From IMG/VR virus record IMGVR_UViG_2529292828_000009: 64,000 nucleotides of DNA. One strand, given 5' to 3'. Shown here in pieces: positions 31,253 through 55,853 of the stretch. This DNA comes from a virus. Lineage: Duplodnaviria; Heunggongvirae; Uroviricota; Caudoviricetes. The position numbers and the translations under genes are program-made. The notes below the pieces were generated by a model, which searched no databases, was not told the DNA's origin, and saw nothing but the letters and a program-made list of their open reading frames with translations. Positions within the stretch are counted from its first letter, which is position 1. Each line of letters opens with the position of its first letter.

Positions 31253-31903
31253 TTAATTTGATTTATTCGCATCCATCAACGCTTTTAACTCCTCCGGCGT
31301 AAAAGGTGGTTTGCGTCGGTGCAACATCGCATGGCAATTAGGACACACAGGAAGCAAATCATTAACTGGATCCAGCAGGTAATCCTCTTTAACGGCTGAA
31401 AGCGGCACCAGGTGATGCATATGGATAAAGCCCTCAGCGATATCGCCATAGATCTTCACCAGATCAACGCCGCATACGTTGCACTGGCATCCGTGATATT
31501 CGACTGCTTTCTCGCGAGCTTTTTTATCGCGTTCATAGCGGTTTACCGTCACCTTTATCGCCGCACCTTCAACGTAGGTCCCCTGCGACGGCAACTCATC
31601 CGGGAACAGAACATCGGCTATGGGAGCCGCAGCGGCTTTATCCTGATGAATATGAAATCCCTGATCTATAAGTAGTTTGACGCATTTAGATTTTATTCCG
31701 CCGGTGAAATCCGCAGGGGTAAATTGCGTCCCCGTCATCAATGTCGCTGCGATGCCAGCAATCGCCTTCGAGGGGTAACGTCGGCCATGATATTCAATTT
31801 CATACAACCGTGCAGGCTGGAACTGATGAGTTTCTCCCGCATCCCATAAATGAATAGCTTCGATGATATACCGCCGCGGAAGATGATCGGGGAGTTTATT
31901 CAT
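31253..31903 (-). CDS. HNH endonuclease with an unassigned ~110-aa N-terminal domain
   Basis: C-terminal CQCNVCG...HMHHLVPL...CPNCHAMLH HNH zinc-finger nuclease motif. Confidence 0.65.
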   Translation of the reverse strand: MNKLPDHLPRRYIIEAIHLWDAGETHQFQPARLYEIEYHGRRYPSKAIAGIAATLMTGTQFTPADFTGGIKSKCVKLLIDQGFHIHQDKAAAAPIADVLFPDELPSQGTYVEGAAIKVTVNRYERDKKAREKAVEYHGCQCNVCGVDLVKIYGDIAEGFIHMHHLVPLSAVKEDYLLDPVNDLLPVCPNCHAMLHRRKPPFTPEELKALMDANKSN

Positions 31904-32668
31904 AGAGAATGTCCTTATACGTTCTCAGAACAAGCAGCAAAAAAACAAATGAGATCAAAGTAATATATCTTCACTTGCAGGCTTGAACAGCAGAAAATTT
32001 GCGAGCATGATCGCAATTATTTCACTGCCAGGGATATCAATGGCTTCCAGTAAATCGCTACAGCAGGCAATTGCCAATATAAAAATCTGGCATAAGGGTG
32101 AACAGCGCGCACCGCATAAACCATTGTTATTGCTATACGTATTAGCGGGATACCTGAATGGACATCCACGCCTTTTCGATTATTGTAGTGGAACAGTCTA
32201 CGAGGATGCAGTTCGAAGTGAGTAAGTAAAGGTTGCTGGAAACGATCAATGCCGCCATACAATGATATTTGAGGATCAACAATGAGTAATAAAAACTACG
32301 AAAGTCACCGCAAAGCGATTGTTAGTAAAGGTATACCACCCGCTCTATTAAATAGGCTCACCAATTCGGATGTTCAGGTGATCAATACCTTCTTAACACG
32401 AGTGAGCAAACTGGAACTATCTCAACAAGAGAAAGACTGGATCATAAAAATCATCTCTATGGTTTAGAGAATTTCAGCCTTGTAGCCTTTCAAGGGTTTT
32501 GTGTGGGTACAAACATTATCGAATCGGGATATAGCCGCAGCTGTAGCTGTATCCACATCAGTAAGTTGATGTAGGTTGACTTAGGTTGAGCGAAAAATAG
32601 CGAAAAGCCTTGTGTGGCGCGGATTTCAGTCATAAAAAAACGTCCGTTGACGTCTATTGATGTTCCGA

Positions 32669-32704
32669 TGGTGCGAAGGTGCGAAGGTGCGAAGGCCGGA
32701 CTCG
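32669..32704. repeat. Degenerate copy of the leuX 3-prime end (distal att of the P4-like island), with triplicated TGCGAAGG
   Basis: GGTGCGAAGG TGCGAAGG TGCGAAGGCCGGACTCG matches tRNA-end sequence GAAGGCCGGACTCG. Confidence 0.6.
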
Positions 32705-33055: not shown

Positions 33056-35440
33056 TTATTTGATTGTTAGCTCATCACACTTGGGAAGCCAGTCTGCATT
33101 ACTTTCCTCTTTTAAAGTGAGGTTAGTCTGCATTCCCTGATTAGTTCGCCGCTTCTCATAATTTAGCCCGTATTCCTTCAGCATAACTGGTAGCCCTTTG
33201 CCAAACATTGTCAGGCTAAGGGTATTTTTAAAGCCATTAGCCTCCATGTATACGAGATAGGCATGGTAAAGGTACGTACGTGGCTGGCGCGGGACAATAT
33301 TGGCGTTCCCCATAAACATGCCGTTGGTGTCAGGTAATGCCTCAAGGTAGCCACAAAAATCAAATGCTGGATCAGCATCACGCTTGATGGTGAGAGCCTC
33401 ATCAGAATTCTGCTGCGACTGAAGCAATGTTCTGGCGCTCATCGGATCGCTGAAACGCTGCATGAGCTGACGAACAATCACAGCCAGTTCTCGTGCAATT
33501 TTATCTTTCAACTGCGGATCGCGTTCTTCCGGTGCTATCTGCTCAGGAAAATGCAGAATAACTCTCCTGCGGGACACACCACCACTGCGATCAGTGAAGC
33601 GCATAGGATTATTATTTACGGCCAAGATAACCGCCGGAATATGTGTTGAATAAGCATTCTGATATTTGGGGTCCACAGATACTGCATCGCCACCAGTTAT
33701 AGCCTTAAGCCCGGCGCCGTCGCCGCTCCACTTCTCCTGATCAGGCAGGCGAATAAGAGAAAAACCTATCAGAGCCGCACGTTCTCGCGGGGACTCCAGC
33801 GTTTCAATGGTCGCAGAGGTGGCGTTATCCTCTCCAGCAAGCATGGTCGCAATTTCAGCCAGAATACTTTTGCCACTTCCACCAGGGCCAGTCACTTCCA
33901 GAAAGAGCTGCCAGTCATAACGGTTCGCCAGCACCATAAATAACGCTGCAAGAATAATGTCGCGTTTTGCTGGCTTGTGTCCGGCGGCCCGGTCCAACCA
34001 ACGCCAGAATGCCGGGGCATGAGTTTCAAGCGTTTCCCCCTTTACCGGTGGCGTGAAATCGACTTCACACAGGGTACGCAGCCAGTTCTCTTTACAGTGC
34101 GGACTAAAAAGCCCTGTTCGCGTATCGAGAACGCCATTACGAAAACCAATCAGATGACGTGACGGATTTTGCTGCTGCGGAACAATTAACTTTAATGTTT
34201 CCACCAGTGAGGCAATTTTTCCTGAGGAAAACGGTGCCCCGAGGCGCTGGAAAAGGGCTGCGACATCTCGGGCAAAATCTGACTGAGAAATAACTTTCCA
34301 CGCTCCAGACTCGTAGCGGGATAAAAGCTGCCCGTTCGGATCAACCGCCAGTGCATCCCTGTAATGCTCCCGAACCCTCTGAGCTTTTTCGCTGACACTC
34401 ATCGCTGTGAATTCTGCTTCACTCATTGTGTCGAAAGGACTGGCGTTATGTGGCTTCAAAGCCTCAAGAATTGCCTTCCGGGTGGATTCCTCTCCGTATT
34501 GGGTAAGCGCATCATTCCAGTCACCAAAAACCGGTGGCAGCACAATGTCACACTGACTCGCTTTTGCAGCAGTTTCAGCCCTGTTCTGGCCTGAACCATT
34601 CAGATCGCGGTCCGCTGCAATAATTAACTGATATCCAGGATACTTATTATGGGCAACGCTGCTCAGAGAAAGAAAGTTGACCGACGAAAATGCCACCATG
34701 ACGGCTTCTCCTGTCAAATAATGAATGGTAAGCGCCGTGGCGTAACCTTCCGTAATCCAAATCCTTCTTACAGAACTCCCGCCCCCTTCTATCAGATGAT
34801 AGGCCTCCTTAACCTGACCTCCTTTAAGAAAACACTTGCTACCATTGCTACTGATAAGCTGAATATTCACCAGCTCCCCGTCAGCGTTATAGAGTGGGAC
34901 GATCAAATCACCGGGGCGGAACATCACACCACCGGCCTTATGAGCTGAAGTCAGCTCATGGCAAATATGCTCCGGGAAACCTTTATGTGTAAGATAAGTG
35001 TTTCCGGCAGATTCACGCGAGGCTTGCAGCAGTCGCGCGGCAAGTGCTGCCGCTGCATCTTTCCCGCTATCGGTATCGGCGGTTAACGTCCTGACCTCGG
35101 AATTAACTATAGACAGATCATGTGTCAGTCCATGTATCCTGTCAGCTGCTTCACTGATATCCACATTCAGTGCCCTGGTGACAAGCGCTAAACCATCCCC
35201 GGCTCCGCACTGATTGCAGAACCATGTTCCGCGTCCTTCCTGATCGTCGAAGCGAAAACGATCTTTACCGCCACAGACCGGGCAAGGCTGATGGCGATTT
35301 TTCAATATATTCACGCCCAGCGCTGGCAGAATCTGAGCCCAGTGACCGCGGGCAGCCTTCACGGCCTGACTGACTTTCATTCCTGACATGACGCAGTTCT
35401 CCCTCAGTGTAAAACCGGCTTTTTGATGTGACGGACGCAT
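33056..35440 (-). CDS. P4 alpha-like primase / helicase
   Basis: N-terminal zinc-binding CPVCGG...CNQCG, central Toprim-like region, C-terminal Walker A GPGGSGKS; true start probably at MSGMKVSQ. Confidence 0.8.
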
Positions 35441-36492: not shown

Positions 36493-36753
36493 TCACGCAT
36501 GGCCTCCTTGCTCGCGGGCAGCAATTCGCGCCGCCATCCATGCACTGACCTCCGACTGTACCCAGGCCACATTTTTTCCACCCAGGGATATCTGCTGCGG
36601 GAAGGCATCGCGGCTGATAAGGTCGTAGATGGTTGAACGGGATAGCCCGCAAAGGTGCATCACTTCAGGTAATCGTATGAAGCGCTCCTGCTGAGCCGGA
36701 ACCGGGAGCACCGGAGCAGCTGGTGCCGGGGTGGAAACGGAAATACTATTCAT
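36493..36753 (-). CDS. AlpA-family phage transcriptional regulator / excisionase-like
   Basis: [25 protein letters not shown]. Confidence 0.75.
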
Positions 36754-37625: not shown

Positions 37626-38411
37626 TTGACACAACAACAAAACACTACCGGAGCAGCCATGACAACTGTTAACCAGATCTCTGATGCAAACATTACCCCC
37701 ACCCTCCCGCCGAAAATTCGCGAAGCGGTGGAAAAAGTTAAGGCAGCAAAAGCTGTCTGGCAGGAAGAACGGCGAAAACAAACCGAAGCTGCTGCAATGA
37801 CTGAAACTATCCGTAAACGTCAGGAAGATACAAAAACGGAGACGCAGGCGCTTAATGATGAATGGCGAAACCTGTTTCGTGAGAATCAGGGGAATATGAC
37901 GCCACGAATGAAAAAACTGCGGGCAGAAATCGCCCTCGGACGCGAAACACTAGATGAGTTCGAAGATTTGCTGGCTGCTCAGGCTGCAGAAAATGAATTC
38001 CTGCCATGGAAAACTGCGGATGCTGCAAACCGCTACATCAGCGAACATAATCACCTGATTGAAACTCATGCAGTGTGGCTCTGGAATGAGTTTATGAAGG
38101 AACACGGCCAGAAACTTATTCAGATCCTTGGACTGCTGAAAATGACTCTGGGCCGAAGCGCATCTTCTGTTATCGGTGTAGTTCATACCGTAAACGACCC
38201 CGAAAGTGTGCTGAAGCAATTTATCAGCGAGCAACTCACCACTCCGGCACTGTTCTGTAACGTATCTTCAACGGATGATATTGCCCTGCCGGGGATCAGC
38301 ATTTATGCGGACGATAAAGCCATACAGGATGCCAGACAATCACCCAGCCCTGCAGCACGTTCCCGGATGCTTAAACAGCGTGACATGGCTAAAGGGGGCG
38401 AGAAGGAATGA
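37626..38411 (+). CDS. P4 Sid-like protein (putative external scaffold / capsid size determination)
   Basis: 261 aa coiled-coil-rich protein first in the psu-containing operon; assignment by position. Confidence 0.4.
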   Translation: MTQQQNTTGAAMTTVNQISDANITPTLPPKIREAVEKVKAAKAVWQEERRKQTEAAAMTETIRKRQEDTKTETQALNDEWRNLFRENQGNMTPRMKKLRAEIALGRETLDEFEDLLAAQAAENEFLPWKTADAANRYISEHNHLIETHAVWLWNEFMKEHGQKLIQILGLLKMTLGRSASSVIGVVHTVNDPESVLKQFISEQLTTPALFCNVSSTDDIALPGISIYADDKAIQDARQSPSPAARSRMLKQRDMAKGGEKE

Positions 38412-38962
38412 ATACCGGAACCATTACTCAGGAAGCTCTCAACGATTACCGCGCGGCAATAAAAAGCTGGCTGACACTACGTAATGTGCAAAGTACCAGC
38501 CAGCTTCGTCTGGCTGCTTTGCTGGATACTGAAGAAAAACCCGCAGCATATGCCAGCCAACTTGAGGATCTTCGTGAGCGTCTTGCACTCCTCGAATGGC
38601 AGATTAACTGTGCCGCCCGGGATGGTCTTTATGCTCACCAGATTGTGCTGGAAAGCTGTGTTACAAGCGCAACTGAAAACTTCATGAGCGAGCATGGTGA
38701 TGCACTCACTGACGCTCTGGCTCCTTTTCTTTGTGCACCATACGGGCTTGAGGCGGCAATGAAAATATTACGAACCGCTGTAGCCCGACAAACGGAAGTC
38801 CGTACTCCGGTAATTTCAGCAGCATATAAGAGCATTATCGACGAAACCGGATTAACGGTGGATGCATCAATGCGCGCTGATGCTTCAGCCAGTTTCACCC
38901 CGGCACAACATAAAGTTTTCCTGGCCCGCCTTAACCGACTTAATGAAAAAGGAGTGTGCTGA
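38408..38962 (+). CDS. P4 Psu-like protein (polarity suppression / capsid decoration)
   Basis: 184 aa; HGDALTDALAP and SFTPAQ motifs resemble P4 Psu as I recall it. Confidence 0.55.
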   Translation: MNTGTITQEALNDYRAAIKSWLTLRNVQSTSQLRLAALLDTEEKPAAYASQLEDLRERLALLEWQINCAARDGLYAHQIVLESCVTSATENFMSEHGDALTDALAPFLCAPYGLEAAMKILRTAVARQTEVRTPVISAAYKSIIDETGLTVDASMRADASASFTPAQHKVFLARLNRLNEKGVC

Positions 38963-38963
38963 T

Positions 38964-39236
38964 ATGGCCCTGAAGTGTCCTGAATGTGGCGCGGTCGCTC
39001 ACGCCAGAACCAGCGCCTATGAAGCTCCGTCGGTTAAACGCTCATGGTATCAGTGCCAGAATCTGGAATGTTCCTGCACATTTACCGCACTGGAAAGCGT
39101 GGATACGATAATTATGAAGCCTCGGTGCAATGAACAGGAATCAGACAAAGCAAAAATACCGGAAAAACAACAGCAAACTCTCAATCGCTATGGCTCCGCG
39201 TCAAAGCTGTCAAACCGTCAGCAAATTCCTGTCTGA
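38964..39236 (+). CDS. Ogr/Delta-family zinc-finger late transcription activator
   Basis: MALKCPECG...YQCQNLECSCTF; start at 38964 with AAAAAGGAG upstream. Confidence 0.75.
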   Translation: MALKCPECGAVAHARTSAYEAPSVKRSWYQCQNLECSCTFTALESVDTIIMKPRCNEQESDKAKIPEKQQQTLNRYGSASKLSNRQQIPV

Positions 39237-39842
39237 TTAGCAAAATACGACCACGAAGTCCCGGTCCAGTACCGGGATTTTTTACGCCTTTTCCCTGGCT
39301 GGCCTGAGAGCGTATGAGTGCATATCTATGGCGCATGAAAACGCATGAGTCTCATGCGCCATTTTTGACGCGAAAGCCCTTGTGTGGTGGCTTCTGAGAC
39401 GATTTACGGGGTGCATGAAAACCAGTCTGTTAAGCGAAGCTGGCAGGCGGGCGGGGCTGCTCGCGCTAAGGGAGAAAATAGCAAACTCAGCCGCGCAGGC
39501 GGTGACAATGATTGACGAGATACTGGCTGGCAGTTGCTGAAATCTCCGCAATGATTCAAGAACTGCAGTGTATCGATGCAGCACACGTAAACTGAGCGGC
39601 GCTACGGGTAATATTTATAGATTTGTCATCCTTAGTGAGCATGGTTCTCACTCTTGTAACCTCTACCTGTACAAGATATCGTAAGACCTCAGATCAAACA
39701 TGCACGTGTATTAAAGGTGGGCAAGCGTGGCGGGAAGATAATTGTGCGCACTGTAGTCAAAGATAGGGATTGTGATTACTTTTTCTTCCAGCCGTGGTGT
39801 AGTAAATTATTGGGAACAAACTCTTAATGACATCAATGGATA

Positions 39843-41141
39843 ATGATTATGACTACAAATCCGGACGGATACATCTCATTTTTAAAACCCGGTAGTAACG
39901 ACTGGAAAGCATTAGATAGTAAATCGTTTATTTATTGGCGAGACTACATAACGAATGAAAGTTTAGAAGAGTCAGGAGATTCTATTTCTCCAGCACAATC
40001 TCTTACTGATGGTGAAAAGAAGGAGTTGAAAGACAATCAGGCATATATAAACGAACTATTACTAAAATCATTACAATTCCCAAATCTTGCATTCTTCGCT
40101 GGGAGTGGTACTTCGCTTGGGGACGTTGGAGGACCAAGCATGTGGGATCTCTGGAAGTGTGCAATGTGGAGTGAATCTTCTATAAACGAGGATGGTCAAT
40201 TAAAACCTGATGCTCAAATTGTTTGTGATAAAGTAAAATATAAAGAGCGAGAGTATCCTAACATAGAACACTTTCTTTCTAATTGTGAAGCATATTTAGC
40301 ATTTCATGATGATGAAGAAGTGTTGAATTTTTTAAATAAAGTTAAAACAATTATTTTAGACAAATGTCGCTCATTTATTGATGATGGCAACTGTGATCTT
40401 TCAGCTTACATCAATTTATTACAAAAAATGGGGAGGAGGAGAGTCAGAGATCCTAGACTAAAAGTTTTCACAACTAACTATGATTTAGCCTTTGAAACAG
40501 CTGCTTCTGAATTAGGAATGATGGTAGTTGATGGTCTTTCATATACAGGAGTTCGCAGATTCGATGGTAAATATTTTAACTACGATGTTGTTAAAAGAGA
40601 TGAAAACGAGCATGAGTTTGTAGAGGGCGTATTCCAGTTATTTAAACTCCACGGTTCTGTAAGTTGGATAAGAAAGGATGGGCAAATATATGAATCCAGC
40701 CAACCAACAGCAACAAACGCATGTCTAATATATCCAGCGAAAGGTAAATATCAGCAAGCCTTTATTCAACCTCACTTAGAATTACTTTCAAGATTGTTAG
40801 ATTTCTTGAGAAAAAGAAATAACTGTTTAGTTATATCTGGATTTGGTTTCAATGATGACCATCTTTCTGAACCAATTTACTCAGCAATAAAATCCAATCC
40901 AAGCATGAGGTTGATTATAGTAGATTTCAAATGTGCAACTCATATTCGGAATAAAGGGGGGGACGGTTCTAGTAAATATTGGGATTTACTAAAACAACTC
41001 TCACTATCAGGTTATGACATTCACTTCATAAATGCATCTTTCAGTGATTTTGTTAAATTAGTTCCCAATCTTAAAGCATTAACCCCAGCAGAACAGTTGG
41101 CTAAGGTAATAAAACAAGTAGGAGTTAACAATCAATTATGA
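39843..41141 (+). CDS. SIR2-family (sirtuin-like NADase) protein, partner of HerA
   Basis: FFAGSGTS Rossmann loop, VFTTNYD, KLHGS motifs; 432 aa. Confidence 0.7.
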   Translation: MIMTTNPDGYISFLKPGSNDWKALDSKSFIYWRDYITNESLEESGDSISPAQSLTDGEKKELKDNQAYINELLLKSLQFPNLAFFAGSGTSLGDVGGPSMWDLWKCAMWSESSINEDGQLKPDAQIVCDKVKYKEREYPNIEHFLSNCEAYLAFHDDEEVLNFLNKVKTIILDKCRSFIDDGNCDLSAYINLLQKMGRRRVRDPRLKVFTTNYDLAFETAASELGMMVVDGLSYTGVRRFDGKYFNYDVVKRDENEHEFVEGVFQLFKLHGSVSWIRKDGQIYESSQPTATNACLIYPAKGKYQQAFIQPHLELLSRLLDFLRKRNNCLVISGFGFNDDHLSEPIYSAIKSNPSMRLIIVDFKCATHIRNKGGDGSSKYWDLLKQLSLSGYDIHFINASFSDFVKLVPNLKALTPAEQLAKVIKQVGVNNQL

Positions 41142-42859
41142 TTAATACAACACTACAGCTTGGTATTTTGAGGGGCGACCTTAAGGTTGGAGTAGTCTCA
41201 TCAATTTTTGCTCAAACAGTTAGAGCAAATTTAATCTATGCAGGGGAACTCAGCGGAACATATATAGAAGGTTGTAGATATGGAAAAGGAGAAGTTGGTG
41301 AAATATTATTAATAGAAGGACAACAATCTATTGTTCTTGGCCGTTTAATAGAGGTTAAATTACCAGAGCGAGATAGAGGTGAAATATCTGTCGGGTCTCA
41401 AGGAAACTTCAAAGTTGATGCTATCGGCATTATACAACTTCTTGGAACTATTGATCCTTCAAATTTTAGAATTGATTCAGGAATCAAATCATATCCTCGA
41501 TTAGGAGATCGAGTTTATTCTGCTCCCTTAGATTTTATTTCTTTAATACCAGAATTAATTAATAAAGGAATTAAAGATAACGAGGAAGAAAGAATAGGTA
41601 TTGTATTAGGCATTATATCTGGAGGGGCAACAAGTATAGTAACTGTTGAACCTGATAAACTCTTCGGTCGTCATTGTGCTATCTTAGGAGCTACAGGCGG
41701 TGGAAAAAGTTGGACAACTTCCAAGTTAATTGAAGAGTGTTCGAATTACGAAAACTCTAAAACTATAATAATTGATGCAACCAGTGAGTATAGATCGTTT
41801 AAATCTGATTATTGTTTACATTACCATTTAGGTGCCCCAATAAATAAAAACATAAATTCTTTAGAATTTAGAATTCCACCTACCGACTTTGTTGAGTCAG
41901 ACTTTATTGCCATGTTCGATCCTTCTGGAAAAGTACAGGGTCCTAAGCTAAAAGAAGCGATAAAAAGCCTTAGATTAGTAGCTTTAGAACCTAGAATAGC
42001 AACCGATGGTATTTTAAAAAAAATCAATCAACCTAAAACAGATTATCGACGCGCAATGAATACTGGAGACAACTCTAAACTTGTTGATAATCCATCACAA
42101 CCATTTGATATAACAAAACTTATAAAACAGATTGTACAAGAATGTTGTTACGATAATGGAGATAATACTTGGGGAAACGCTGCAACTCAAGACTTAAGCT
42201 ATTGCTCATCTTTGTTAACCAGAATTCAAGCAGTAACGTATGCCAACTCGTTAAGGTCTGTTTTTAATAGTAACGAGGATATATCCACACTAGGTGAAAT
42301 ATTAGAAACTTTTTTACAATCTGATAAACGAGTCCTAAGGTTATGCCTAAGTGATGTTAGCTATGAGTTTTATGCTAGAGAAATTTTAGCCAATGTAATC
42401 GGCAGAAAACTTTTAACTTTAGCTAGGCTTGAAAAATTCAGAACAAGACCGCTGTTAGTTATTGTTGATGAAGCCCATAACTTCCTTGGCAAACGGGTTG
42501 GTTCTGAAGATCATGCAATTAAACTTGACGCTTTTGAGATGATTGCAAAAGAAGGCAGGAAATATGGCCTTAATATATGCTTAACAACTCAAAGACCCAG
42601 AGATATCACTGAAGGTGTGCTTAGTCAAATTGGAACCTTATTGGTTCATCGCTTAACAAACGACCGAGATCGAGAAGTCGTTGAGCGTGCATGCGGTGAA
42701 ATTGATAAATCTGCAGCATCTTTTCTACCAAGTCTCAAACAAGGTGAAGTTGCTCTTGTAGGGGTTGACTTCCCTATTCCTATGACCATCCAGATAGATA
42801 AGCCAATATATCCACCAGAATCTGATTCTCCAGGCTATTGCAATATATGGAAAAAATAA
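41138..42859 (+). CDS. HerA-like FtsK/HerA-family ATPase
   Basis: Walker A AILGATGGGKSWT, Walker B LLVIVDEAHNF, TTQRP; 4-nt ATGA overlap with SIR2 gene. Confidence 0.8.
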   Translation: MINTTLQLGILRGDLKVGVVSSIFAQTVRANLIYAGELSGTYIEGCRYGKGEVGEILLIEGQQSIVLGRLIEVKLPERDRGEISVGSQGNFKVDAIGIIQLLGTIDPSNFRIDSGIKSYPRLGDRVYSAPLDFISLIPELINKGIKDNEEERIGIVLGIISGGATSIVTVEPDKLFGRHCAILGATGGGKSWTTSKLIEECSNYENSKTIIIDATSEYRSFKSDYCLHYHLGAPINKNINSLEFRIPPTDFVESDFIAMFDPSGKVQGPKLKEAIKSLRLVALEPRIATDGILKKINQPKTDYRRAMNTGDNSKLVDNPSQPFDITKLIKQIVQECCYDNGDNTWGNAATQDLSYCSSLLTRIQAVTYANSLRSVFNSNEDISTLGEILETFLQSDKRVLRLCLSDVSYEFYAREILANVIGRKLLTLARLEKFRTRPLLVIVDEAHNFLGKRVGSEDHAIKLDAFEMIAKEGRKYGLNICLTTQRPRDITEGVLSQIGTLLVHRLTNDRDREVVERACGEIDKSAASFLPSLKQGEVALVGVDFPIPMTIQIDKPIYPPESDSPGYCNIWKK

Positions 42860-42897
42860 TTAGTAGGGTCTTTGACCCTACTTTAAAATTTTTAAAG

Positions 42898-44169
42898 CTA
42901 GATAGTTTTTTTTGCAAAGTCGTAGGGGGTTATATATTCCTGAGTGTTAGCATCAAGATAATCGGCCCACCACTGAACCATTAAACGACGCTCATCCAAA
43001 TGCTCTGAAGTATGAATATAAGCAGCCCTAACGCTATTACGCTCAGAGTGGCTTAGCTGACGTTCTATCGCGTCATCACTCCACAACCCTGATTCGCCCA
43101 AAGCACCGCGCGCCATAGTTCTGAATCCATGCCCGCAAACTTCGGTTTTTGTGTCATACCCCATTGTGCGCAAAGCACTGTTAACCGTGTTTTCACTCAT
43201 AACTTTAGTTGCGTCATGATCTCCCGGAAACAGTAGCTCTTTATCACCACTAATCTGCTTAAGCTGCTCTAACAAAATCATCGCCTGCCGACTAAGCGGA
43301 ACGATATGCTCCTCTTTCATCTTCATCCCACGGTACGAGTAACGGACACCTTTAATTTCTTCTCGTTTTGCCGGTATACGCCAAAGAGATTTATCGAAGT
43401 CGAATTCATCCCAGCGAGCGAAACGCAACTCACTGGAACGCACAAAAGTTAGTAAGGAAAGCTCGACTGCAATCCGTGTCATTAAACGGCCACGATATGC
43501 AGCAAGACGTGCAAGAAACTCAGGGAAACGGTTAGAGGGTAAAGCTGGATAGTGTCGTGCTTTGGTTGTCGATAAAGCACCAGCCATATCACTGGCTGGG
43601 TTTGAGTCGATATAATCGTTCTGTACGGCATAACGCATAATAGCTGTAACACGCTGCTGAAGACGCTGCGCGACGTCATGCTTACCACTGGCATCAACTT
43701 TTTTAATCGGGGCTAACAGGTGGCTTGTTTTAAGCTGGCGGATATCGGACGATCCGATATGAGGGAAGATATAAAGCTCAAGATAGCGAAGAACGCGCGC
43801 TCTATGGTCTTCACTCCAGCGCTTGTTACTGGCATGCCATTCACGAGCGATCGTTTCGAAAGTATATGCCCCCGATTTCTCGGCCTGAGCCGCTTTCTGC
43901 TCGGCTTTTGGATCAATACCCTGCACTAATAATCTTTTAGCTTCATCACGTTTTGCCCTTGCCTGGGCAAGTGTCACAGTAGGCCAAACGCCAAAAGCGA
44001 GGCGATCCTCTTTTTTGTCTGAAGGGCGTCTGTATTTCATACGCCAGTATTTAGATCCCTTGGCCGAAACCTCAAGATACAAACCGCCACCATCGGCCAT
44101 TTTGTAGGTTTTGTCTTTTGGCTTTGCGGTCTCGACCAGTCTGGCGTTGAGCTTCATTTGGGGGCACAT
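42898..44169 (-). CDS. P4-family tyrosine integrase of the satellite island
   Basis: Homologous to the integrase at 62135-63385 (shared AVMRYAVQN, FVRSSELRFARW, VCGHGFR, RAAYIH); probable start MKLNARL at 44157. Confidence 0.85.
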   Translation of the reverse strand: MCPQMKLNARLVETAKPKDKTYKMADGGGLYLEVSAKGSKYWRMKYRRPSDKKEDRLAFGVWPTVTLAQARAKRDEAKRLLVQGIDPKAEQKAAQAEKSGAYTFETIAREWHASNKRWSEDHRARVLRYLELYIFPHIGSSDIRQLKTSHLLAPIKKVDASGKHDVAQRLQQRVTAIMRYAVQNDYIDSNPASDMAGALSTTKARHYPALPSNRFPEFLARLAAYRGRLMTRIAVELSLLTFVRSSELRFARWDEFDFDKSLWRIPAKREEIKGVRYSYRGMKMKEEHIVPLSRQAMILLEQLKQISGDKELLFPGDHDATKVMSENTVNSALRTMGYDTKTEVCGHGFRTMARGALGESGLWSDDAIERQLSHSERNSVRAAYIHTSEHLDERRLMVQWWADYLDANTQEYITPYDFAKKTI

Positions 44170-44320: not shown

Positions 44321-44344
44321 TGGTGCCGAAGGCCGGACTCGAAC
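44321..44344. repeat. 24-bp direct repeat of the leuX 3-prime end (att junction between the two islands)
   Basis: TGGTGCCGAAGGCCGGACTCGAAC identical to 63575-63598. Confidence 0.85.
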
Positions 44345-44691
44345 ATCGCAACTATCCTTATGATCTTTAGTAATTAAAGCAATCTACATTGTCGATGATA
44401 CCATCATTGATACCATCAGACCCGATTGATGATAATCGAACAGTAATAAAATATGACTAAACAATTTATGCTTCAACATAAGATTGAATGCTTTGATCTA
44501 CCATTTTAATGCAGTGGAAAAATTTTTAACACAATACTTAAGAAAAATAATTTCATATAAAAACTACATTTCATTTCATATAGTTAACACACCAAAAACA
44601 ACTGTATATAAACCCAGTAAAAAATGGTAGAATCACTATTGTGTTCAATTGTTGAACATTTATAATACATTTGTCGGATAGGGGGGTGTTT

Positions 44692-45279
44692 ATGCAAAGG
44701 AACACATACAACAAAGTAGGTCTATACATCCTATCTTTAGCTATGCTTTTTGTTTTTATTATTATCCTGACTGCCAAAATCCCCTTTTGCTTCACTTCGG
44801 ATTGTAGCTTCATAGGTTTGAAGAGACTTGTATTAACAAATATTGTTCCTATTGTTTGCTTTGTATTTTTTCTATTTAGTATTTATTTTTATAATAGATT
44901 AAAAAACATAACAAAATACAATGGACAAGATAGCGTTAAAATAACATCATGTCAAAGCGAAAGCTATGAAAGTTTAACATTCTTAGCAACATACATTGTA
45001 CCTTTTATGGGGTTTAGTTTTGAAGACATGCAAAAGAATATAGCATATCTTTTGCTTGTAGTAGTAATAGGCATTATTTTTATTAAAACAGACAAGTATT
45101 ATGCGAATCCAACTTTAGCTCTGTTTGGCTTTAAACTATACAGGGTAAATATACTACACCCAGGAAGTGGAGAAACAAAAAATCTGATAGCTATTTCAAA
45201 TGATGTATTAAAAGTGGACGATAATGTTTATTATAGTTTCTTTGATGAATTTGTTTTTATAGCAAGGAAAAAAATATGA
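44692..45279 (+). CDS. Four-TM membrane protein, KwaA-like (Kiwa defence system component A)
   Basis: Four hydrophobic helices; ATG at 44692 after a G-rich RBS; 4-nt overlap with the downstream gene; call is by architecture only. Confidence 0.45.
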   Translation: MQRNTYNKVGLYILSLAMLFVFIIILTAKIPFCFTSDCSFIGLKRLVLTNIVPIVCFVFFLFSIYFYNRLKNITKYNGQDSVKITSCQSESYESLTFLATYIVPFMGFSFEDMQKNIAYLLLVVVIGIIFIKTDKYYANPTLALFGFKLYRVNILHPGSGETKNLIAISNDVLKVDDNVYYSFFDEFVFIARKKI

Positions 45280-46223
45280 CTACTCAGCAGTTAAAAGAAA
45301 AAATTTCAAAAATAATTGATAACTTTAGCGGAATCAGGGTTGTATTTACTACTACTGCTAATGAACTAAAGCTTTCCAGAATTGAAGGGAGTGCATTAAA
45401 TAGCATAGCTGAAGGGTTTATTGACAAAATCAAAGAAGACATTATAAATAATGAAGATCTCACCTCACCATTGCTGTCCAATTTTGATGATAGAAAAAAT
45501 GCCTTGTTTAAATTTGATTACGAACAATATCCTGAAGAATTTAACAAAATCACTCAGGCCATCGCTATCCCTCCTAACTCACAAGATTATTATAACCCTT
45601 TAAATAAATTCACAGATGTGAAAGGAATTATAATTTTAATAAGTGGAGATAACAAATGCCTGGCTCTTTATAAAAACAAAACTAACCTTGCAGTATTGAG
45701 AAATAGCAGAAAAATGTTTAATTTAGTCCCTGACCCTGATGGATACTTGAAACAACTCCCTAATGAGATATTACGGTTAGATTTCAATTATGATCTATTA
45801 TCAATTGGTGAGGATTTTTACATTAAAAATCACAAGACTCTTGAAACTCAAATGAAATTTCATCAAGTGATTGAAGCCCAGGCAGTTATTGCTTTAAATT
45901 CTTTACGGGATTCACTACTAATTGAAGACATATCAGGTTTAGAAAAGAGTTCGAGAGAAATTTCATTCGCTAGAAAGTTGGCAAAAATCTCCAAACATTC
46001 TCCTGTTTTGGGGAAAATAGATACTAAAACAATTATCGATTATGTATCCCAACATAAATATTTATCTGCAATACTTCAGATTAATGAAGCAGGAAATAAG
46101 TTATTAATTAAAACCAAGACATCACAGAAGCATTTCATTAAACTCATGAGCGATGATTATTTACAATCAGATCTAACTAAAATAATATACATGAGCATAG
46201 CAAAAGACAGATTAGATGAATAG
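45276..46223 (+). CDS. KwaB-like soluble protein (DUF4868-like, Kiwa component B)
   Basis: 315 aa, coupled to the upstream 4-TM protein; call by size and architecture. Confidence 0.45.
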   Translation: MTTQQLKEKISKIIDNFSGIRVVFTTTANELKLSRIEGSALNSIAEGFIDKIKEDIINNEDLTSPLLSNFDDRKNALFKFDYEQYPEEFNKITQAIAIPPNSQDYYNPLNKFTDVKGIIILISGDNKCLALYKNKTNLAVLRNSRKMFNLVPDPDGYLKQLPNEILRLDFNYDLLSIGEDFYIKNHKTLETQMKFHQVIEAQAVIALNSLRDSLLIEDISGLEKSSREISFARKLAKISKHSPVLGKIDTKTIIDYVSQHKYLSAILQINEAGNKLLIKTKTSQKHFIKLMSDDYLQSDLTKIIYMSIAKDRLDE

Positions 46224-46237
46224 AATTTTAAGTAGAA

Positions 46238-46278
46238 GTGACAAATATTATAAACCATTCTTGAAATATATTTGTCAC
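46238..46278. terminator. Bidirectional hairpin between convergent genes
   Basis: 11-bp perfect inverted repeat GTGACAAATAT (46238-46248) / ATATTTGTCAC (46268-46278). Confidence 0.5.
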
Positions 46279-46287
46279 TATTACTAA

Positions 46288-46959
46288 TCATTCGCGTGCT
46301 TGATTATTTATGCTGGATGTTCTAATTGTTGCCGAATGCCAATACCCACCACTATATGTTCTTGCTATAGTAATAAATCCAGTACAGGTAATTACTGTCA
46401 TTAAAATCAGGAAAATATAATAGAAATTAAGCGGAGCTTTCAAATCAAAAGGAGGTAACGAATACACCAGCAACCCTATCCATACAATAGTTATAAATAA
46501 ACTAATAATTTGGTTTATCTTAGATACTGATATTGGAGATGGACCAGTAAGTAAATGAACCGAAAACTCTTTTATTCCTTTCGGTTTTGCACGAGATAAC
46601 ACCACTTTATATAGTGGACCATTAATATTATCTTCTAACATATCGACATGTTTTTCCCAGTTTCCCTGCCAATATTTACTACCACGGTTAACACAGAGCC
46701 AACCGAATGAAAATACAATTCCCAGTGAACACAGTAATACGGATAAATCTGTCTTAGCTGTAGAAGAGGAAGTCTGTATAGCAACAAAACCAGCTAAAGT
46801 TGCCGCTATAAAAGTCCAGAAATAAGTTGCTCTTTTCCAGTAATGGTCTATCTCATATTTCCGTATATCTAAAGCCTGTAGCAGAGCATTCTTATTACAG
46901 TCTCTATCATTAAGAAAACGGCTACGATATTCCTCATCTGAAAATGGAGTAATTGGCAT
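46288..46959 (-). CDS. Orphan multi-TM membrane protein with a SLATT-like N-terminal arrangement
   Basis: Charged helix, then TM pair (YFWTFIAATLAGFVAI ... LSVLLCSLGIVFSFGWLCV), then two further C-terminal TM helices; no match recognised. Confidence 0.5.
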   Translation of the reverse strand: MPITPFSDEEYRSRFLNDRDCNKNALLQALDIRKYEIDHYWKRATYFWTFIAATLAGFVAIQTSSSTAKTDLSVLLCSLGIVFSFGWLCVNRGSKYWQGNWEKHVDMLEDNINGPLYKVVLSRAKPKGIKEFSVHLLTGPSPISVSKINQIISLFITIVWIGLLVYSLPPFDLKAPLNFYYIFLILMTVITCTGFITIARTYSGGYWHSATIRTSSINNQARE

Positions 46960-46985
46960 ATTGATTTACCTCTATTTATAATAGT

Positions 46986-47013
46986 AAAAGAGGGGTCCCC
47001 CCCCCTCTTTTTT
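46986..47013 (-). terminator. Rho-independent terminator at the 3-prime end of the RM gene
   Basis: AAAAGAGGGG (46986-46995) / CCCCTCTTTT (47002-47011) stem with flanking T-run. Confidence 0.55.
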
Positions 47014-50000
47014 AGTTATTTTTAAACAAAACCTTTACTATTCCATCTATATCCCTTAGGAAACTCTCGAAAGAGGATCTATTAGCCTTAGCTTCATGAG
47101 CCTTTTTTGAAAGTTCAGACAGCTCACGATGCTTTTTATTACCTTCATCATAAAGAGGAACATTAATTGGAGGTCTGATTTTAAAAGTTCTGCTATCACT
47201 GGACTTCAGAATGTACTCCCCAGTGATTGATGAGTTAAAAATAGCACAAATGTAATGTGCCTCATCCAGGGTAATAAATTTACCATCTTGCCTCTGAGAT
47301 ATACTCACAGCATGGTTCTGAAATAAAGGTCTCTTTTTGTCACCCCATGGAGTATCCATTTGACTCACAACTGCTGCTGCCCATTTAGTGTTATCACGAA
47401 AACAAACAAAATGATCACCATAAGTATATTCACCTACACGAGCCAATGCGTAAAATGCAGTAATATTGCTTTTACCTATGATTTTGTCATTGTATCGAGT
47501 CTGCGACTCTAATAACTGTTTATTATTAATGAAATAGTCAGCCAACATAGGGCTTTCTTTAACAAGCTCATCTACAGGTATCGGTTTACGACTCAATTCT
47601 CTATATGGAAAGGGTACGAAGAACTCAACATCTTTTACCCCAAAAGGTTCAATATTTGTTCCTTTAATCAGGGGGTATATATGCTTGGTTTCAGCAAAAA
47701 TCATTTGTTTTGCCACTTTATACTTAGACTTGCCACCCTGATAATTTTCAAAAATTGCAGTGTTGTTAGCTTTTTTTGTCTTAAATTTCCATAAGAATAA
47801 TTCTTGAGGGAAAAATTCAATCCCTTCCCTGCCATGATATTCGCAATATCCACTGATATTTCTGTAATCATTGAGTTTTTCGGAATCTGAAGCATATGTA
47901 AAGGCTGTATTGCTTACACTAACAGTGCCAGCGATCTCTTTACGGATAGAGAACTCATGCGAAATAGCATTAAAATGCGTATGCTGTGAGTAGCTATCAA
48001 GGCTTCTTCCGGTTTTATTTTTCGTCAAAAATGTTAAAGGTATCCCTTTTAAATAATCGACATTTTTTGACGAGAATAAATAAGTCGCAAACTTGATTGT
48101 AACAGGCTTGAATGGATGCCCGGATTCACTCCAGTCGTATACCTCTTGGAGATATAGTTTTTGGTTATCCCCAAAGTTAAACTCTCGAAATCCTTCATAT
48201 GTTTGCTGGAAAAGGATATTTTGAGGCATAAGGAATGCCAATATGCCATCTTTCTCTAACCAGTTTTCAGCAGATACATTAGAAATTAATGCACAAATGT
48301 TAAGGTTTATACCACCAGTAAGCCTATCACCAGAAAATAGGCTCCTACTTAAGCATAAGCCTTTAATTCGTTCTCGATATCCTGCAGGTAAATTTTTCCA
48401 GTCAATCCATGGTGGATTACCAACAACCATATTAAATTTGCCTAAGTTTGCAGTGGTCAAAAAATTAGTGACTATTCTAGCCCAAATTCCATTCCAGTCT
48501 CTTTCTTCTAGTTCGACAAACTTATCTGATAAAGTTTTTAATTTTTCATAAATGCTAGGAGAACTACTAATATCCCCACTTACTTCGATTAATTTTGCAA
48601 AAACACTATCACGATCTCGAAGTTTAATATATCGTTCAATATCAACAATTGCTTTTGAGAACTTATGAGAATCACTCAAAGCTTGAGTAGGCATCTCGAT
48701 ATAAATCGAGCCTTGCAAAGTATTTATTTCGTATCGCAAACAGTCAATGCCATCAATTATGACCTTTTCTGGAACATACGATGCGTCACCAAGATAAATT
48801 GGAATTTCAACTTCGCTACCTTCATCAAGCAAATGTGATATATTGATGAAATAGTTGATTCTTGCAGTTAAAGCTGCAAGAGGATTTAAATCAATACCTT
48901 TGACAGATGTTATGACATCTTTTAATTTAGCTTTGCTATCAGTATGAGTACGACTCAGAACTTTACCTATTAATGTAATTATAAAGGTTCCGCTACCACA
49001 ACATGGATCAATTGCAGTCCAGTTGTTCTTATTTACAACATGCTCTTCAGCAGAGGATATCAAATGCTCTGCAAGCCATTCAGGAGTGTAAAATTCTCCA
49101 AGAGAATGTCTTACTTTATCAGGAATAATGTTCATGTATAGATCTTTGAAAAGATCGTATACTTTTTCACCCTCTTTGAAAAGGTTTCCTTCCTCATATT
49201 CACTTAGTAATGAAAATATATTTTTAATACTAATGAATATATCATCTCCCCATTGTTCCTTAGTACAATACCAAGAGAAAAAGTCACCTTCCAGCAGGTT
49301 CAAAATCCCATACTTCCTGAAAATAGCACCTTCTTCTAATGTGTATAAATAGTTTCTCATTGATTCAGAGTTACTATTGATCATATCTGAAAAATTATAA
49401 TCATTTTCAAATACAAGTCCAGATAATGTTTTATAAGCTATTATTTTTACAATAATCGCATATGCAGTCTGGAGAGCATAAAGAACTTTATATTCATCAT
49501 CGTTAGTAAGTAACCTATGACCAGCAATATCTTCAAGTGATAACTTTCGTTCTAAAATTGCTGTTTGCTGAGATTTATCATCATGTGCAAGTCTAAATAG
49601 CTCCTTCCATTCGTTGAAGAGCATTTGAGAGCGGCCCGTCATGTTATTTTCAAGAGCCGAAAGAAGATTACCTATTAATTGAGTTGTTAAAGATGGAGAT
49701 CCATAGCAAAAATCATCAACGATGTTTTTTGGATGCAATGCCTTCTTATTCAAAAGAACTAAAAGCCCGCAAATTTTTTTAATTGCATTCTTATCAAGCG
49801 GTTGCAACTTTGATGTTAAAATGCCATCAGTATCACGAATAAGGTAATTAATACCGTCTGTTAGCACTCCAACATAGCGTTGATTCCCTTCTAACTTTAA
49901 AGAATCAAGGTAAGCCTGGATTTGAAGCACAGCCTTATTAATATCATTATCTTTTTTTAATTTCTCTCTATGCTTAAACTCTATTACTAAAGATCCAATA

Positions 50001-50290
50001 CGACTATCGATACGCCCCTTACTGTTGCTTCTGCCGGTCGTGTTGTATTTAATACCATCAATAAAAATTTCTTTTTCGGGACGGTAATCAATACCAATGA
50101 AATCTTTAATGAAAGGAATAAAAGCAAGGTCGAAACCAGAAACAACTTCTGCTTCATTTTTGGCTAAATATGAGGACTCATTAATTTTTTTAGATATAAT
50201 ATCAGCAGCTAAAAGAAAATCTGAGTCAGTAACAATCTTTTCTTGAGCTTTGAACTTAATTTTTTTTTGAATTTCTTCTAACACAGCCAT
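47012..50290 (-). CDS. Type IIG restriction-modification enzyme, MmeI-like (PD-ExK nuclease + N6-adenine methyltransferase + target recognition)
   Basis: N-terminal IDSRIGSLVIEFK (D...ExK), SAM motif DPCCGSGTF, catalytic VGNPPW; 1092 aa in one polypeptide. Confidence 0.65.
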   Translation of the reverse strand: MAVLEEIQKKIKFKAQEKIVTDSDFLLAADIISKKINESSYLAKNEAEVVSGFDLAFIPFIKDFIGIDYRPEKEIFIDGIKYNTTGRSNSKGRIDSRIGSLVIEFKHREKLKKDNDINKAVLQIQAYLDSLKLEGNQRYVGVLTDGINYLIRDTDGILTSKLQPLDKNAIKKICGLLVLLNKKALHPKNIVDDFCYGSPSLTTQLIGNLLSALENNMTGRSQMLFNEWKELFRLAHDDKSQQTAILERKLSLEDIAGHRLLTNDDEYKVLYALQTAYAIIVKIIAYKTLSGLVFENDYNFSDMINSNSESMRNYLYTLEEGAIFRKYGILNLLEGDFFSWYCTKEQWGDDIFISIKNIFSLLSEYEEGNLFKEGEKVYDLFKDLYMNIIPDKVRHSLGEFYTPEWLAEHLISSAEEHVVNKNNWTAIDPCCGSGTFIITLIGKVLSRTHTDSKAKLKDVITSVKGIDLNPLAALTARINYFINISHLLDEGSEVEIPIYLGDASYVPEKVIIDGIDCLRYEINTLQGSIYIEMPTQALSDSHKFSKAIVDIERYIKLRDRDSVFAKLIEVSGDISSSPSIYEKLKTLSDKFVELEERDWNGIWARIVTNFLTTANLGKFNMVVGNPPWIDWKNLPAGYRERIKGLCLSRSLFSGDRLTGGINLNICALISNVSAENWLEKDGILAFLMPQNILFQQTYEGFREFNFGDNQKLYLQEVYDWSESGHPFKPVTIKFATYLFSSKNVDYLKGIPLTFLTKNKTGRSLDSYSQHTHFNAISHEFSIRKEIAGTVSVSNTAFTYASDSEKLNDYRNISGYCEYHGREGIEFFPQELFLWKFKTKKANNTAIFENYQGGKSKYKVAKQMIFAETKHIYPLIKGTNIEPFGVKDVEFFVPFPYRELSRKPIPVDELVKESPMLADYFINNKQLLESQTRYNDKIIGKSNITAFYALARVGEYTYGDHFVCFRDNTKWAAAVVSQMDTPWGDKKRPLFQNHAVSISQRQDGKFITLDEAHYICAIFNSSITGEYILKSSDSRTFKIRPPINVPLYDEGNKKHRELSELSKKAHEAKANRSSFESFLRDIDGIVKVLFKNN

Positions 50291-50835
50291 CGTTACATCT
50301 CTATGTTACATAGCAAATTTCTTATAATTTTACCACATTTCAATAAATATTTCATCATGTTTGTTTGGTATTATCCATACACTTGAGAAAAGTTAATTTC
50401 ACAATTAAGCAAGGGCTAACTCTCCGAAGCTCCGCTTCTTATAGTTCCCCTTGATTTTCTTTCTTTCAGTCAGAAAATACAGACATTTCATCATGAAAAT
50501 TGATAATTTATTTTTAGTATTAAAGTATTATCTCACCTTATCGCCGAACCGATTTGAGATTTAGTGCAACTATAAGTATAGTTCCCCTGACAAATAGCTT
50601 TCTTATTTAAGTAACGGTTAAACGATAGGGCCTCACTACTGGTGCCAATCATGCCATACTCTCAAATGCTACCCCTGCAGACAGGGCTCTACTACCGTAA
50701 AGCTGGCATAAAGTATTATAGTTACCTCTCTTAAAAGGAATTTCTAACTCATGTACCAGATCTACATGAGTTCTACATCCCCCTGATGAACTTAGCAGTG
50801 ATAGCTAACCGATACTGAAGTGTACTGCTGAGTGA

Positions 50836-50887
50836 TTTGACAAATAGAAAATATTAAGCTATAACAGTTGTATCCTACAGGATACAA
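50836..50887 (+). promoter_or_regulatory. Sigma70-like promoter (TTGACA-17 bp-TATAAC) followed by a perfect palindromic operator
   Basis: TTGACA 50836-50841, TATAAC 50859-50864, palindrome GTTGTATCCTACAGGATACAAC 50866-50887. Confidence 0.55.
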
Positions 50888-50899
50888 CATGAGAGCATT

Positions 50900-51157
50900 A
50901 TGCCAGAAATAGATAGGCAGGGAGGTTTGGCTTTCTACATGTACTTTTTCGATACGGGAAAACATCATGTTCCTCATGTACATGTAAAATTTGGCGAATA
51001 TGAATTGGTTTTAAGTATAGCGGATGCCCAAGAACTCGCAGGATACTTACCCGATAAATGGAGAAATAAAGCAAGAAAACATGTATTAACAAATAAACAG
51101 AAACTTAAGAAAATGTGGGTTCTCGCCGTGAATGGAAAACAGCCAGGAACTATCTGA
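50900..51157 (+). CDS. DUF4160-family protein
   Basis: MPEIDRQGGLAFYMYFFDTGKHHVPHVHV N-terminal signature. Confidence 0.6.
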   Translation: MPEIDRQGGLAFYMYFFDTGKHHVPHVHVKFGEYELVLSIADAQELAGYLPDKWRNKARKHVLTNKQKLKKMWVLAVNGKQPGTI

Positions 51158-51170
51158 AGAGGAGAGATTT

Positions 51171-51671
51171 ATGAGCAGAATTATAGACTTAGATATTATT
51201 GATGATTTTACTTTGCAGTTAACCTATGAAAGTGGTTTGTCTGGAAAATTTAACTTCTTTAAATATCGTGATTGCGAAGTTTTTAATAATCCTAAAAAAT
51301 TCCAGAAATTTGCTTTGCTACCTACTGGTGATCTCGAATGGTTAGGGGGCGAACGAGTTACTTCCTTAGAACTGTTAGATAAACTTGTTAATATAAGCTC
51401 TACTGAAAAGAGTAATATTTCAGGCACCACCGACATACTCATGATGGCGTTTCAAGATGCTGTTCGTGAAAATAGACCACAGATTATTCAGGCAGCTTTG
51501 CGAGCTATGCTTGATAAGCATGGTGTAGCAAATGTTGCAAATATGACAAATGGAAGTAGAACAAGTATTTATAAGTCCCTAAGCGAAAATACTAATGTAT
51601 CTATGTCTACTGTTATTAACCTTGCTCATAGTGTTATGGAAATTGAGAAAAAAGAAAAAGAAATATATTAA
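51171..51671 (+). CDS. DUF2442-like domain fused to a C-terminal HTH (antidote-like) domain
   Basis: MSRIIDLDIIDDFTLQLTYESG start after an AGGAGAG RBS; C-terminal LRAMLDKHGVANVANMTNGSRTSIYKSL HTH. Confidence 0.5.
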   Translation: MSRIIDLDIIDDFTLQLTYESGLSGKFNFFKYRDCEVFNNPKKFQKFALLPTGDLEWLGGERVTSLELLDKLVNISSTEKSNISGTTDILMMAFQDAVRENRPQIIQAALRAMLDKHGVANVANMTNGSRTSIYKSLSENTNVSMSTVINLAHSVMEIEKKEKEIY

Positions 51672-52418: not shown

Positions 52419-52430
52419 AAATTTCTAATT

Positions 52431-53621
<1,191 letters not shown>

Positions 53622-54118: not shown

Positions 54119-54159
54119 AATTAATTTCACACAATCGCAAACATAAAATGAGAAAGTAA

Positions 54160-54546: not shown

Positions 54547-54553
54547 TTGTTTT

Positions 54554-55839: not shown

Positions 55840-55853
55840 AAGTATCTCCTGTT

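Follow-up and report, generated by a model that had tools for sequence, protein, structure and literature searches.

The 64,000-nucleotide stretch analysed here (the window; IMG/VR record IMGVR_UViG_2529292828_000009) is part of an Escherichia coli chromosome and contains, within an integrated satellite of the P4 family, two adjoining genes that encode a SIR2 protein and a HerA ATPase. A preliminary description had read positions 39843 to 42859 as two coupled genes lying between a delta/Ogr-like gene and an integrase gene, and we recover the same arrangement. Open reading frames (ORFs) extend on the plus strand from 39843 to 41141 (432 amino acids, aa) and from 41138 to 42859 (573 aa), and they share an ATGA at 41138-41141 in which the ATG of the HerA gene (41138-41140) is interlocked with the TGA of the SIR2 gene (41139-41141). 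The motifs by which the two products had been recognized are all present in the translations: FFAGSGTSLG, FTTNYDLAF and KLHGSVSW in the first, LGATGGGKSW and LLVIVDEAHNF in the second. The 3' limit of the pair stands as given, and its 5' limit probably has to be moved to the second ATG, at 39849. This start is likelier than 39843 because it is the one used by RefSeq, because all homologues start at the position equivalent to MTTNPDG, matching the ATG at 39849, and because an upstream GGA (39838-39840) is separated by 8 nt from this start and by just 2 nt from the ATG at 39843. SIR2 residue numbers below therefore refer to the 430-aa form. In RefSeq the two proteins are named 'SIR2 family protein' (WP_001402808) and 'ATP-binding protein' (WP_001402807).

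Both proteins significantly matched SIR2 or HerA/DUF87 profiles in the hidden Markov model searches proposed in the preliminary description, and its assignment of the pair to the SIR2-HerA systems is borne out by defence profiles over the full length of the proteins, by invariant catalytic residues and by a fold search. The SIR2 protein covers nearly the whole of the PADLOC profile PDLC04075 (E=7e-82) and also matches Pfam SIR2_2 (E=3.4e-11). Its motifs comprise GSGTS at residues 85-89, the catalytic residues N210, D212 and H268, and GFGFNDDH at 331-338. At E<=1e-10, a homologue search returned 2,481 relatives; the 120 closest to our protein are full-length and originate in Serratia, Pantoea, Erwinia, Dickeya, Pseudomonas, Burkholderia and other genera. 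In an alignment of 27 members of this SIR2 clade, at 54-84% identity, GSGxS, T208-T-N210-Y-D212, H268-G-S and GFGFND.H are invariant; N210, D212 and H268 align with the catalytic N163, D165 and H212 of the Paenibacillus protein PsSIR2, and the motifs also align with N226 and H287 of SaSir2 and with the catalytic residues of the E. coli SIR2. The NAD-binding and catalytic signature of the protein is thus, as judged from its residues, intact.

Known structures point to the same system. A HMMER search of the PDB with its sequence matched only SIR2 chains of SIR2-HerA complexes, namely those of E. coli Nezha (8j4u_A of 8J4U, E=2.3e-20), Staphylococcus aureus (8YHX) and Paenibacillus (8W9L). When an AlphaFold2 model of moderate quality (predicted local distance difference test score, pLDDT, 71) was compared with the PDB by Foldseek, ranks 1-39 were all SIR2 subunits of SIR2-HerA complexes, with ThsA, SPARSA and DSR2 appearing from rank 40 on and Avs5 likewise placed behind the SIR2-HerA entries. 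Nezha provides the best structural match (TM score 0.52-0.58), yet its SIR2 is only about 22-25% identical in sequence. On the basis of the model, the protein is assigned to the HerA-associated kind of SIR2 and not to the ThsA, DSR, SPARSA or Avs5 kinds. In addition, its ~75 N-terminal residues form a conserved module, confidently modelled as a beta-hairpin and a helix and containing an invariant Trp.

HerA is identified by its PADLOC match, which covers nearly the whole of PDLC04103 (E=1.7e-166), and by Pfam matches to DUF87 (E=6.7e-19) and HerA_C. The protein consists of an N-terminal beta-barrel, a Walker A motif GATGGGKS with K190, a helical insertion, a Walker B motif DEAH with D444 and E445, and TQRPRD; K190, D444/E445, TQRPRD and HRLTNDRDR are invariant among the aligned HerA orthologues. 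Sequence searches of the PDB returned defence HerA proteins, partnered either with SIR2 or with DUF4297. With a profile built from four orthologues, residues 14-228 align to residues 11-216 of the Paenibacillus protein PsHerA, across the beta-barrel and Walker A (E=3.6e-11), and residues 427-573 align to PsHerA 442-586 in the RecA half. The protein terminates where the C-terminal arm of PsHerA would begin.

The two genes have travelled together well beyond E. coli. Among 5,426 complete E. coli genomes, 22 contain the 3.4-kb SIR2-HerA region at >=99% identity, in all cases on the chromosome. In Serratia, an orthologous SIR2 gene is followed by a gene for a 573-aa HerA in the same slot, between Ogr/Delta and the integrase of a P4-like element, and in Pseudomonas putida and Burkholderia cenocepacia the same pair occurs beside other integrases, outside any satellite. 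The divergence of the two proteins is parallel: identities to the Serratia, P. putida and B. cenocepacia orthologues are 79, 54 and 54% for SIR2 and 84, 60 and 59% for HerA. Compared with Serratia, the proportion of nonsynonymous sites that differ (pN) is 0.12 for SIR2 and 0.094 for HerA, and the corresponding synonymous proportion (pS) is about 0.75 and saturated, which is why we give pN and pS instead of the ratio of nonsynonymous to synonymous substitution rates (dN/dS). Low pN with saturated pS argues for strong purifying selection on both genes. Together, these comparisons show a pair that, to judge from its sequences, has been inherited as a unit across Proteobacteria under strong purifying selection. 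The GC content of the pair is 35-38% in E. coli and Serratia (where the flanks have 58%) and about 54% in Pseudomonas and Burkholderia (loci L004, L006 and L008 compared with the window). This suggests that a low-GC version of the pair reached enterobacterial P4-like satellites recently.

The element that carries the pair is a genuine P4-family satellite integrated at tRNA-Leu (leuX), and the earlier proposal of a P4-like satellite is upheld by protein identities to P4, by profiles for Psu, Sid and Delta, by an exact attP core and by a size of 11,662 bp, against 11,624 bp for P4. Amino-acid identity to P4 is 95% for Int, 73% for alpha, 70% for ORF106, 64% for Vis (P4 ORF88), 63% for cI, 43% for Delta (to the first half of P4 Delta) and 27% for Psu. 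At the DNA level, int-attP is 88.5% identical to P4, and when the complete satellite was compared with phage records by megablast, int-attP of P4 was the only match; for this reason, the other satellite genes are likened to P4 at the protein level. PHROG and Pfam profiles bear out the identities of Sid, Psu, Delta, primase and integrase, and the Sid-like protein falls into phrog_6165, the PHROG family to which the product name of P4 sid in NC_001609 corresponds. The core gene set of P4 (alpha primase-helicase, Vis/AlpA, cI/Ash-like, sid, psu, delta and integrase) is present in P4 synteny, with the order sid-psu-delta here and sid-delta-psu in P4; an epsilon gene was not identified in the satellite by PHROG and Pfam profiles or by comparison with P4 proteins. 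Unlike P4, the element has a Delta that is a single protein of Ogr size, and the core of its cos-like site is non-canonical.

The right attachment site (att) is exact, and a second exact copy of the attP core lies at 63575-63594, within an intact tRNA-Leu(caa) gene (63575-63659). The sole other core-like site in the window is a degenerate left copy, TGGTGCGAAGGTGCGAAGGTGCGAAGGCCGGACTC, which can be read as the attP core with GGTGCGAA in triplicate: three copies of this 8-bp unit precede a conserved GGCCGGACTC, and the last 20 nt of the site differ from the P4 attP core by 5 mismatches. The imperfect left site may impair excision.

Within the satellite, SIR2-HerA occupies the slot next to a cos-like site. 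The canonical P2/P4 cos 19-mer is absent from the element at <=3 mismatches, at <=6 mismatches and by blastn, and a divergent cos-like region was detected only by indel-tolerant alignment; when aligned locally with the cos region of P4, it scores 44, compared with 21.2 +/- 3.2 (maximum 32) for shuffled spacer. The same region, 39411-39470, is found in a sister element in strain elppa5, which is homologous to our satellite up to 39470, where the cos-like site has its right edge, and again from 42958, a position within the 3' end of int. Both flanks of the sister element are 94.8% identical to those described here, and its cargo consists of an AAA ATPase and ABC-three-component proteins. Moreover, a query extending from sid to attR was matched in some part in 1,300 genomes and was covered to >=80% in only 21. 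Comparison with the P4 reference found no trace of the P4 accessory genes gop, beta and cII in the satellite, and SIR2-HerA takes their place as cargo between the cos-like site and int. The behaviour of a hotspot is therefore reproduced at this locus, with widespread flanks, a rare cargo and a sister element carrying a different one. The preliminary description had placed the pair in the psu-int hotspot of P4-like satellites, as is the case: Rousset et al. 2022 (PMC9122126) describe this cos-adjacent hotspot and name 'SIR2 + HerA (Gao et al., 2020)' as one of the systems known to occupy it, and the segment studied here agrees with theirs in position, between the late operon with cos and int, as well as in being small and of foreign GC content. 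The putative cos core in this P4 subfamily is GGCAGGCGGGCGGGGCTGC (in the window and in locus L002, ~3326-3368), compared with GGCGAGGCGGGGAAAGCAC in P4, and the Serratia relative (locus L004, 6874) keeps a near-canonical core with 3 mismatches, ~125 bp upstream of its SIR2 gene.

Among characterized systems, Nezha of E. coli (PDB 8J4U, 8SU9 and 8SUB; Sir2 WP_021577683) offers the closest parallel in organization, being a two-gene operon with SIR2 followed by HerA, and it has in common with our pair a SIR2 Rossmann fold with an N/D/H triad and a HerA composed of a beta-barrel and a RecA domain with Walker A and B motifs. The pair differs from Nezha in having a HerA of 573 aa instead of 610 aa and a SIR2 with ~55 extra N-terminal residues; furthermore, the pair scores below the NCBIfam equivalog cut-offs. 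Nezha has been reported as passively ATP-gated. The best sequence match for HerA is found in the SIR2-HerA system of Paenibacillus sp. 453MF (PDB 8W9L, 8WIV and 8WLD; profile E=6e-37), where the barrel and RecA halves both align, yet the C-terminal arm of ~110 residues (576-696) in PsHerA has no counterpart here and the two SIR2 proteins are just 17-21% identical. The HerA of the related HerA-DUF4297 system (PDB 8XAU) is about as similar (E=3.5e-36) as the SIR2-partnered HerA proteins, with the difference that its effector is a DUF4297 nuclease and the effector here is a SIR2 protein.

Additional E. coli lineages were described by Zhang et al. 2026 (PMC13434337), who studied eight Sir2-HerA clusters from this species and found Nezha and types I-III to be robustly protective. 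Types I-III are, like our pair, divergent non-Nezha Sir2-HerA lineages from E. coli genomes, and this cluster is probably among the eight, because genomes that carry it were public before the October 2020 data cut-off of that study. Judged from residue numbers only, type III fits poorly (HerA K188/D218 and Sir2 N238, compared with K190, D213/E217 and N210 here), which argues against membership of that type. Candidate assignments of the pair are type I, type II and the four clusters that lacked robust activity. Its distance from the solved systems, at 17-25% identity, is normal for the family, because the E. coli and Paenibacillus systems are themselves only 28% (SIR2) and 23% (HerA) identical and types I-III share 13-22% identity (PMC13434337). 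In this sense, it is a divergent subtype, whose N-terminal SIR2 module and armless HerA are variations within a known kind.

Taken together, these observations favour, with a probability of about 0.8, the reading of the locus as a SIR2-HerA abortive-infection module carried as accessory cargo by an integrated P4-like satellite. We infer the activity of this subtype by analogy, and each step of the mechanism outlined below is taken from its relatives, namely E. coli Nezha, the Paenibacillus and S. aureus systems and E. coli type III. In the first three of these, HerA hexamers bind SIR2 12- or 14-mers, ATP is inhibitory, and formation of the complex licenses NADase together with ATPase, helicase and nuclease activities (PMC11514289, PMC11472057). 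In E. coli type III, the phage single-stranded DNA-binding protein (SSB) Gp2.5 or Gp5.9 unlocks a HerA nickase, and the resulting DNA ends drive ATP consumption, which lifts an ATP checkpoint on the NADase (PMC13434337). The same general logic of ATP-gated, HerA-controlled depletion of nicotinamide adenine dinucleotide (NAD+) leading to growth arrest would be expected here. A HerA hexamer and a SIR2 12-14-mer would assemble into a complex of ~1 MDa, in which ATP bound to HerA would keep the SIR2 NADase silent in uninfected cells. Infection could lift this block through a drop in ATP, through DNA ends and/or through a phage protein such as an SSB, upon which SIR2 would hydrolyse NAD+ to ADP-ribose and nicotinamide, possibly alongside DNA nicking or cleavage associated with HerA or SIR2. 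The infected cell would then arrest growth before phage progeny form. In this way, the satellite might block phages that it cannot exploit and protect its host, and possibly also its helper P2-like prophage.

Several observations weigh against this reading. A literature search turned up no phage or NAD+ experiments on this subtype, and WP_001402808 and WP_001402807 were not found in the literature searched or in the available portion of the supplementary tables of Rousset et al. 2022; the P4 table there, as far as available, includes 'hypothetical + DUF87' entries, which may be other variants. Neither protein reaches the NCBIfam equivalog cut-offs, with SIR2 scoring 123 bits against 500 for SIR2_antiphage (NF042942) and HerA scoring 150 against 800 and 123 against 850 for HerA_antiphage (NF042943/4); the pair is therefore outside those equivalog subfamilies, hence its bland RefSeq names. 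In addition, SIR2 is just 17-25% identical to any solved SIR2, and its AlphaFold2 model, built from the 27-member alignment, is of moderate quality (predicted TM score, pTM, 0.71), with low confidence at the active-site loops.

Further points of this kind bear on whether the pair, as a true SIR2-HerA homologue, gives protection that is undetectable or very narrow, either because it is one of the E. coli clusters that failed in the study of Zhang et al. or because it is silent as a prophage. Only four of their eight clusters protected robustly in MG1655 against 110 phages (PMC13434337), in what is the sole systematic test of such systems from E. coli. A scan for sigma-70 promoters upstream of SIR2 found 10 sites where 11.6 were expected, none of them convincingly placed, and the system is rare, with one of its 22 E. 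coli carriers, strain 19KM2326N (locus L009, 1750-4759), having SIR2 and HerA each annotated as two fragments in an otherwise 99.7% identical region, a state that reflects either decay of the system or assembly errors. We nevertheless consider a non-protective pair unlikely. The remaining 21 E. coli copies are annotated intact, the catalytic motifs are invariant across a large clade under strong purifying selection, and the pair has been kept together in unrelated mobile elements of three other genera; moreover, a negative result with one panel in one host would not prove lack of function.

A role in the life cycle of the satellite, through DNA translocation or packaging at cos or through interference with the helper, is highly improbable as an alternative to general defence. 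Such a role might be read from the position of the pair directly beside the cos-like site, and from HerA being a translocase of the FtsK/HerA type whose C-terminal ATPase weakly matches phrog_2666 ('terminase large subunit', E=1.1e-15). However, this similarity is limited to the generic ASCE ATPase core, and Pseudomonas and Burkholderia carry the same pair outside satellites. In sister elements, almost identical flanks enclose unrelated cargo, so that the satellite can do without the pair; P4 itself has gop, beta and cII in that slot; and, among SIR2 proteins, the partner most closely resembles those of defence systems. A packaging function was therefore rejected. Finally, HerA could belong to a module for DNA repair or end resection, comparable to archaeal HerA-NurA, given its weak match to an NCBIfam DNA-repair HerA (82 bits against a cut-off of 970) and its match to Sulfolobus HerA 4d2i (1e-16). 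This is scarcely likely at all: no NurA, Mre11 or Rad50 genes are found nearby, the partner is a SIR2 protein and the genes occupy the cargo slot of a mobile element and have a foreign GC content, so that a repair role of the HerA-NurA type was likewise rejected.

The reading of the locus as a defence module leaves room for a more specific proposal, that the clade is a SIR2-HerA subtype that differs in mechanism and has a trigger or gating of its own. We regard this as possible, with the odds against it. It is prompted by the conserved N-terminal module of SIR2, which could be a HerA-docking or phage-sensing element, and by the lack of a C-terminal arm in HerA, and it has a precedent in type III, which uses a HerA nickase and sensing of a phage SSB in place of the passive ATP sensing of Nezha. 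A trigger logic peculiar to the clade, if shown, would give one more example for the emerging view of Sir2-HerA as a family of differently wired systems, which would be an incremental advance rather than a novel type of system. The SIR2-HerA system, the PADLOC subtype profiles and the occurrence of such pairs in the P4 hotspot have all been published, and the importance of the locus beyond annotation is slight. Nevertheless, it provides a textbook illustration of satellite-borne immunity, in which a low-GC defence cassette sits beside a cos-like site in a P4-like element. It also indicates that surveys relying on RefSeq names will miss this subtype, since scores under the NCBIfam equivalog cut-offs leave its proteins with generic labels.

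Table 1. Positions in the window of the SIR2-HerA pair and of the features of the P4-like satellite that carries it.
Feature	Position	Strand	Basis
Degenerate left att copy	32671..32703		Repeat-containing attP core
P4 alpha-like primase-helicase	33056..35440	-	phrog_2249 E=1.8e-220
Vis/AlpA-like excisionase and regulator	36493..36753	-	phrog_2790 E=1.9e-15
Sid-like capsid size determination protein	37626..38411	+	phrog_6165 E=2.2e-91; RefSeq 'phage capsid assembly protein'
Psu (polarity suppression protein)	38408..38962	+	Pfam Psu 2.7e-35; phrog_6366 5.6e-70
Delta, single Ogr/Delta zinc-finger late activator	38964..39236	+	Pfam Ogr_Delta 7.3e-17
cos-like region	39411..39470		Shortened non-canonical core; left edge of hotspot
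Variable cargo segment	39471..42957		~35% GC, compared with ~48% for the P4 core; breakpoints relative to elppa5
SIR2 NADase effector (predicted)	39849..41141	+	430 aa; alternative in-frame ATG 39843; PADLOC, alignment, AlphaFold2/Foldseek, HMMER
HerA ASCE ATPase	41138..42859	+	573 aa; PADLOC, Pfam, PDB profile search, invariant motifs
GC-rich hairpin, candidate bidirectional terminator	42862..42882		Between convergent HerA and int; consensus match only
P4-type tyrosine integrase	42898..44169	-	Arm-DNA-bind_3, Phage_int_M and Phage_integrase domains
Right att	44321..44344		Exact 24-bp copy of the tRNA-Leu 3' end, including the exact 20-bp P4 attP core (44321-44340)

At the candidate terminator between HerA and int, a terminator-like site was called on the minus strand, and a T-rich tail is seen on the plus strand. 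Just outside the satellite, on the side of its degenerate left att, the window contains an HNH endonuclease gene (31253-31903, minus strand) and, at ~32040-32190, a truncated phosphorothioated-DNA-binding restriction endonuclease according to the RefSeq annotation of strain D6, which may have been left behind by an element that previously occupied the leuX site.

On the other side, a second island of ~19 kb (44345-63574) lies in tandem between the right att of the satellite and the intact tRNA-Leu(caa) gene, with its own P4-type integrase (62135-63385, minus strand), 57% identical to P4 Int. It carries a Kiwa system in a region of ~29% GC, consisting of KwaA (44671-45279; PADLOC 9.4e-77) and KwaB (45276-46223; 1.7e-115), followed on the opposite strand by a gene for an 8xMP octameric membrane protein (46288-46959; Pfam 1.3e-39) and by a minus-strand gene for a type IIG restriction-methyltransferase fusion of 1,092 aa (47012-50290; PADLOC REase_MTase_IIG 2.3e-156). 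The leuX region thus holds three defence systems, SIR2-HerA, Kiwa and type IIG, in ~11 kb. A search of the 5,426 complete E. coli genomes did not recover the junction of int, attR and KwaA, whose parts do occur separately, as Kiwa does in O55:H7 strains. The second island further contains a MobA/VirD2 relaxase gene (52431-53621), a DUF6387 gene and, at 55854-60224 on the minus strand, a tandem row of three overlapping ORFs with products of 400, 454 and 624 aa. Those of the first and second are tyrosine recombinases, the 454-aa product matching NF041502 integrase_1 (7e-94) and the 400-aa product weakly matching the gamma-mobile-trio (GMT) recombinase GmtY (4.6e-9), while profile searches gave no family match for the 624-aa product; in its layout, the row is reminiscent of a recombinase-trio or GMT-type mobile module.

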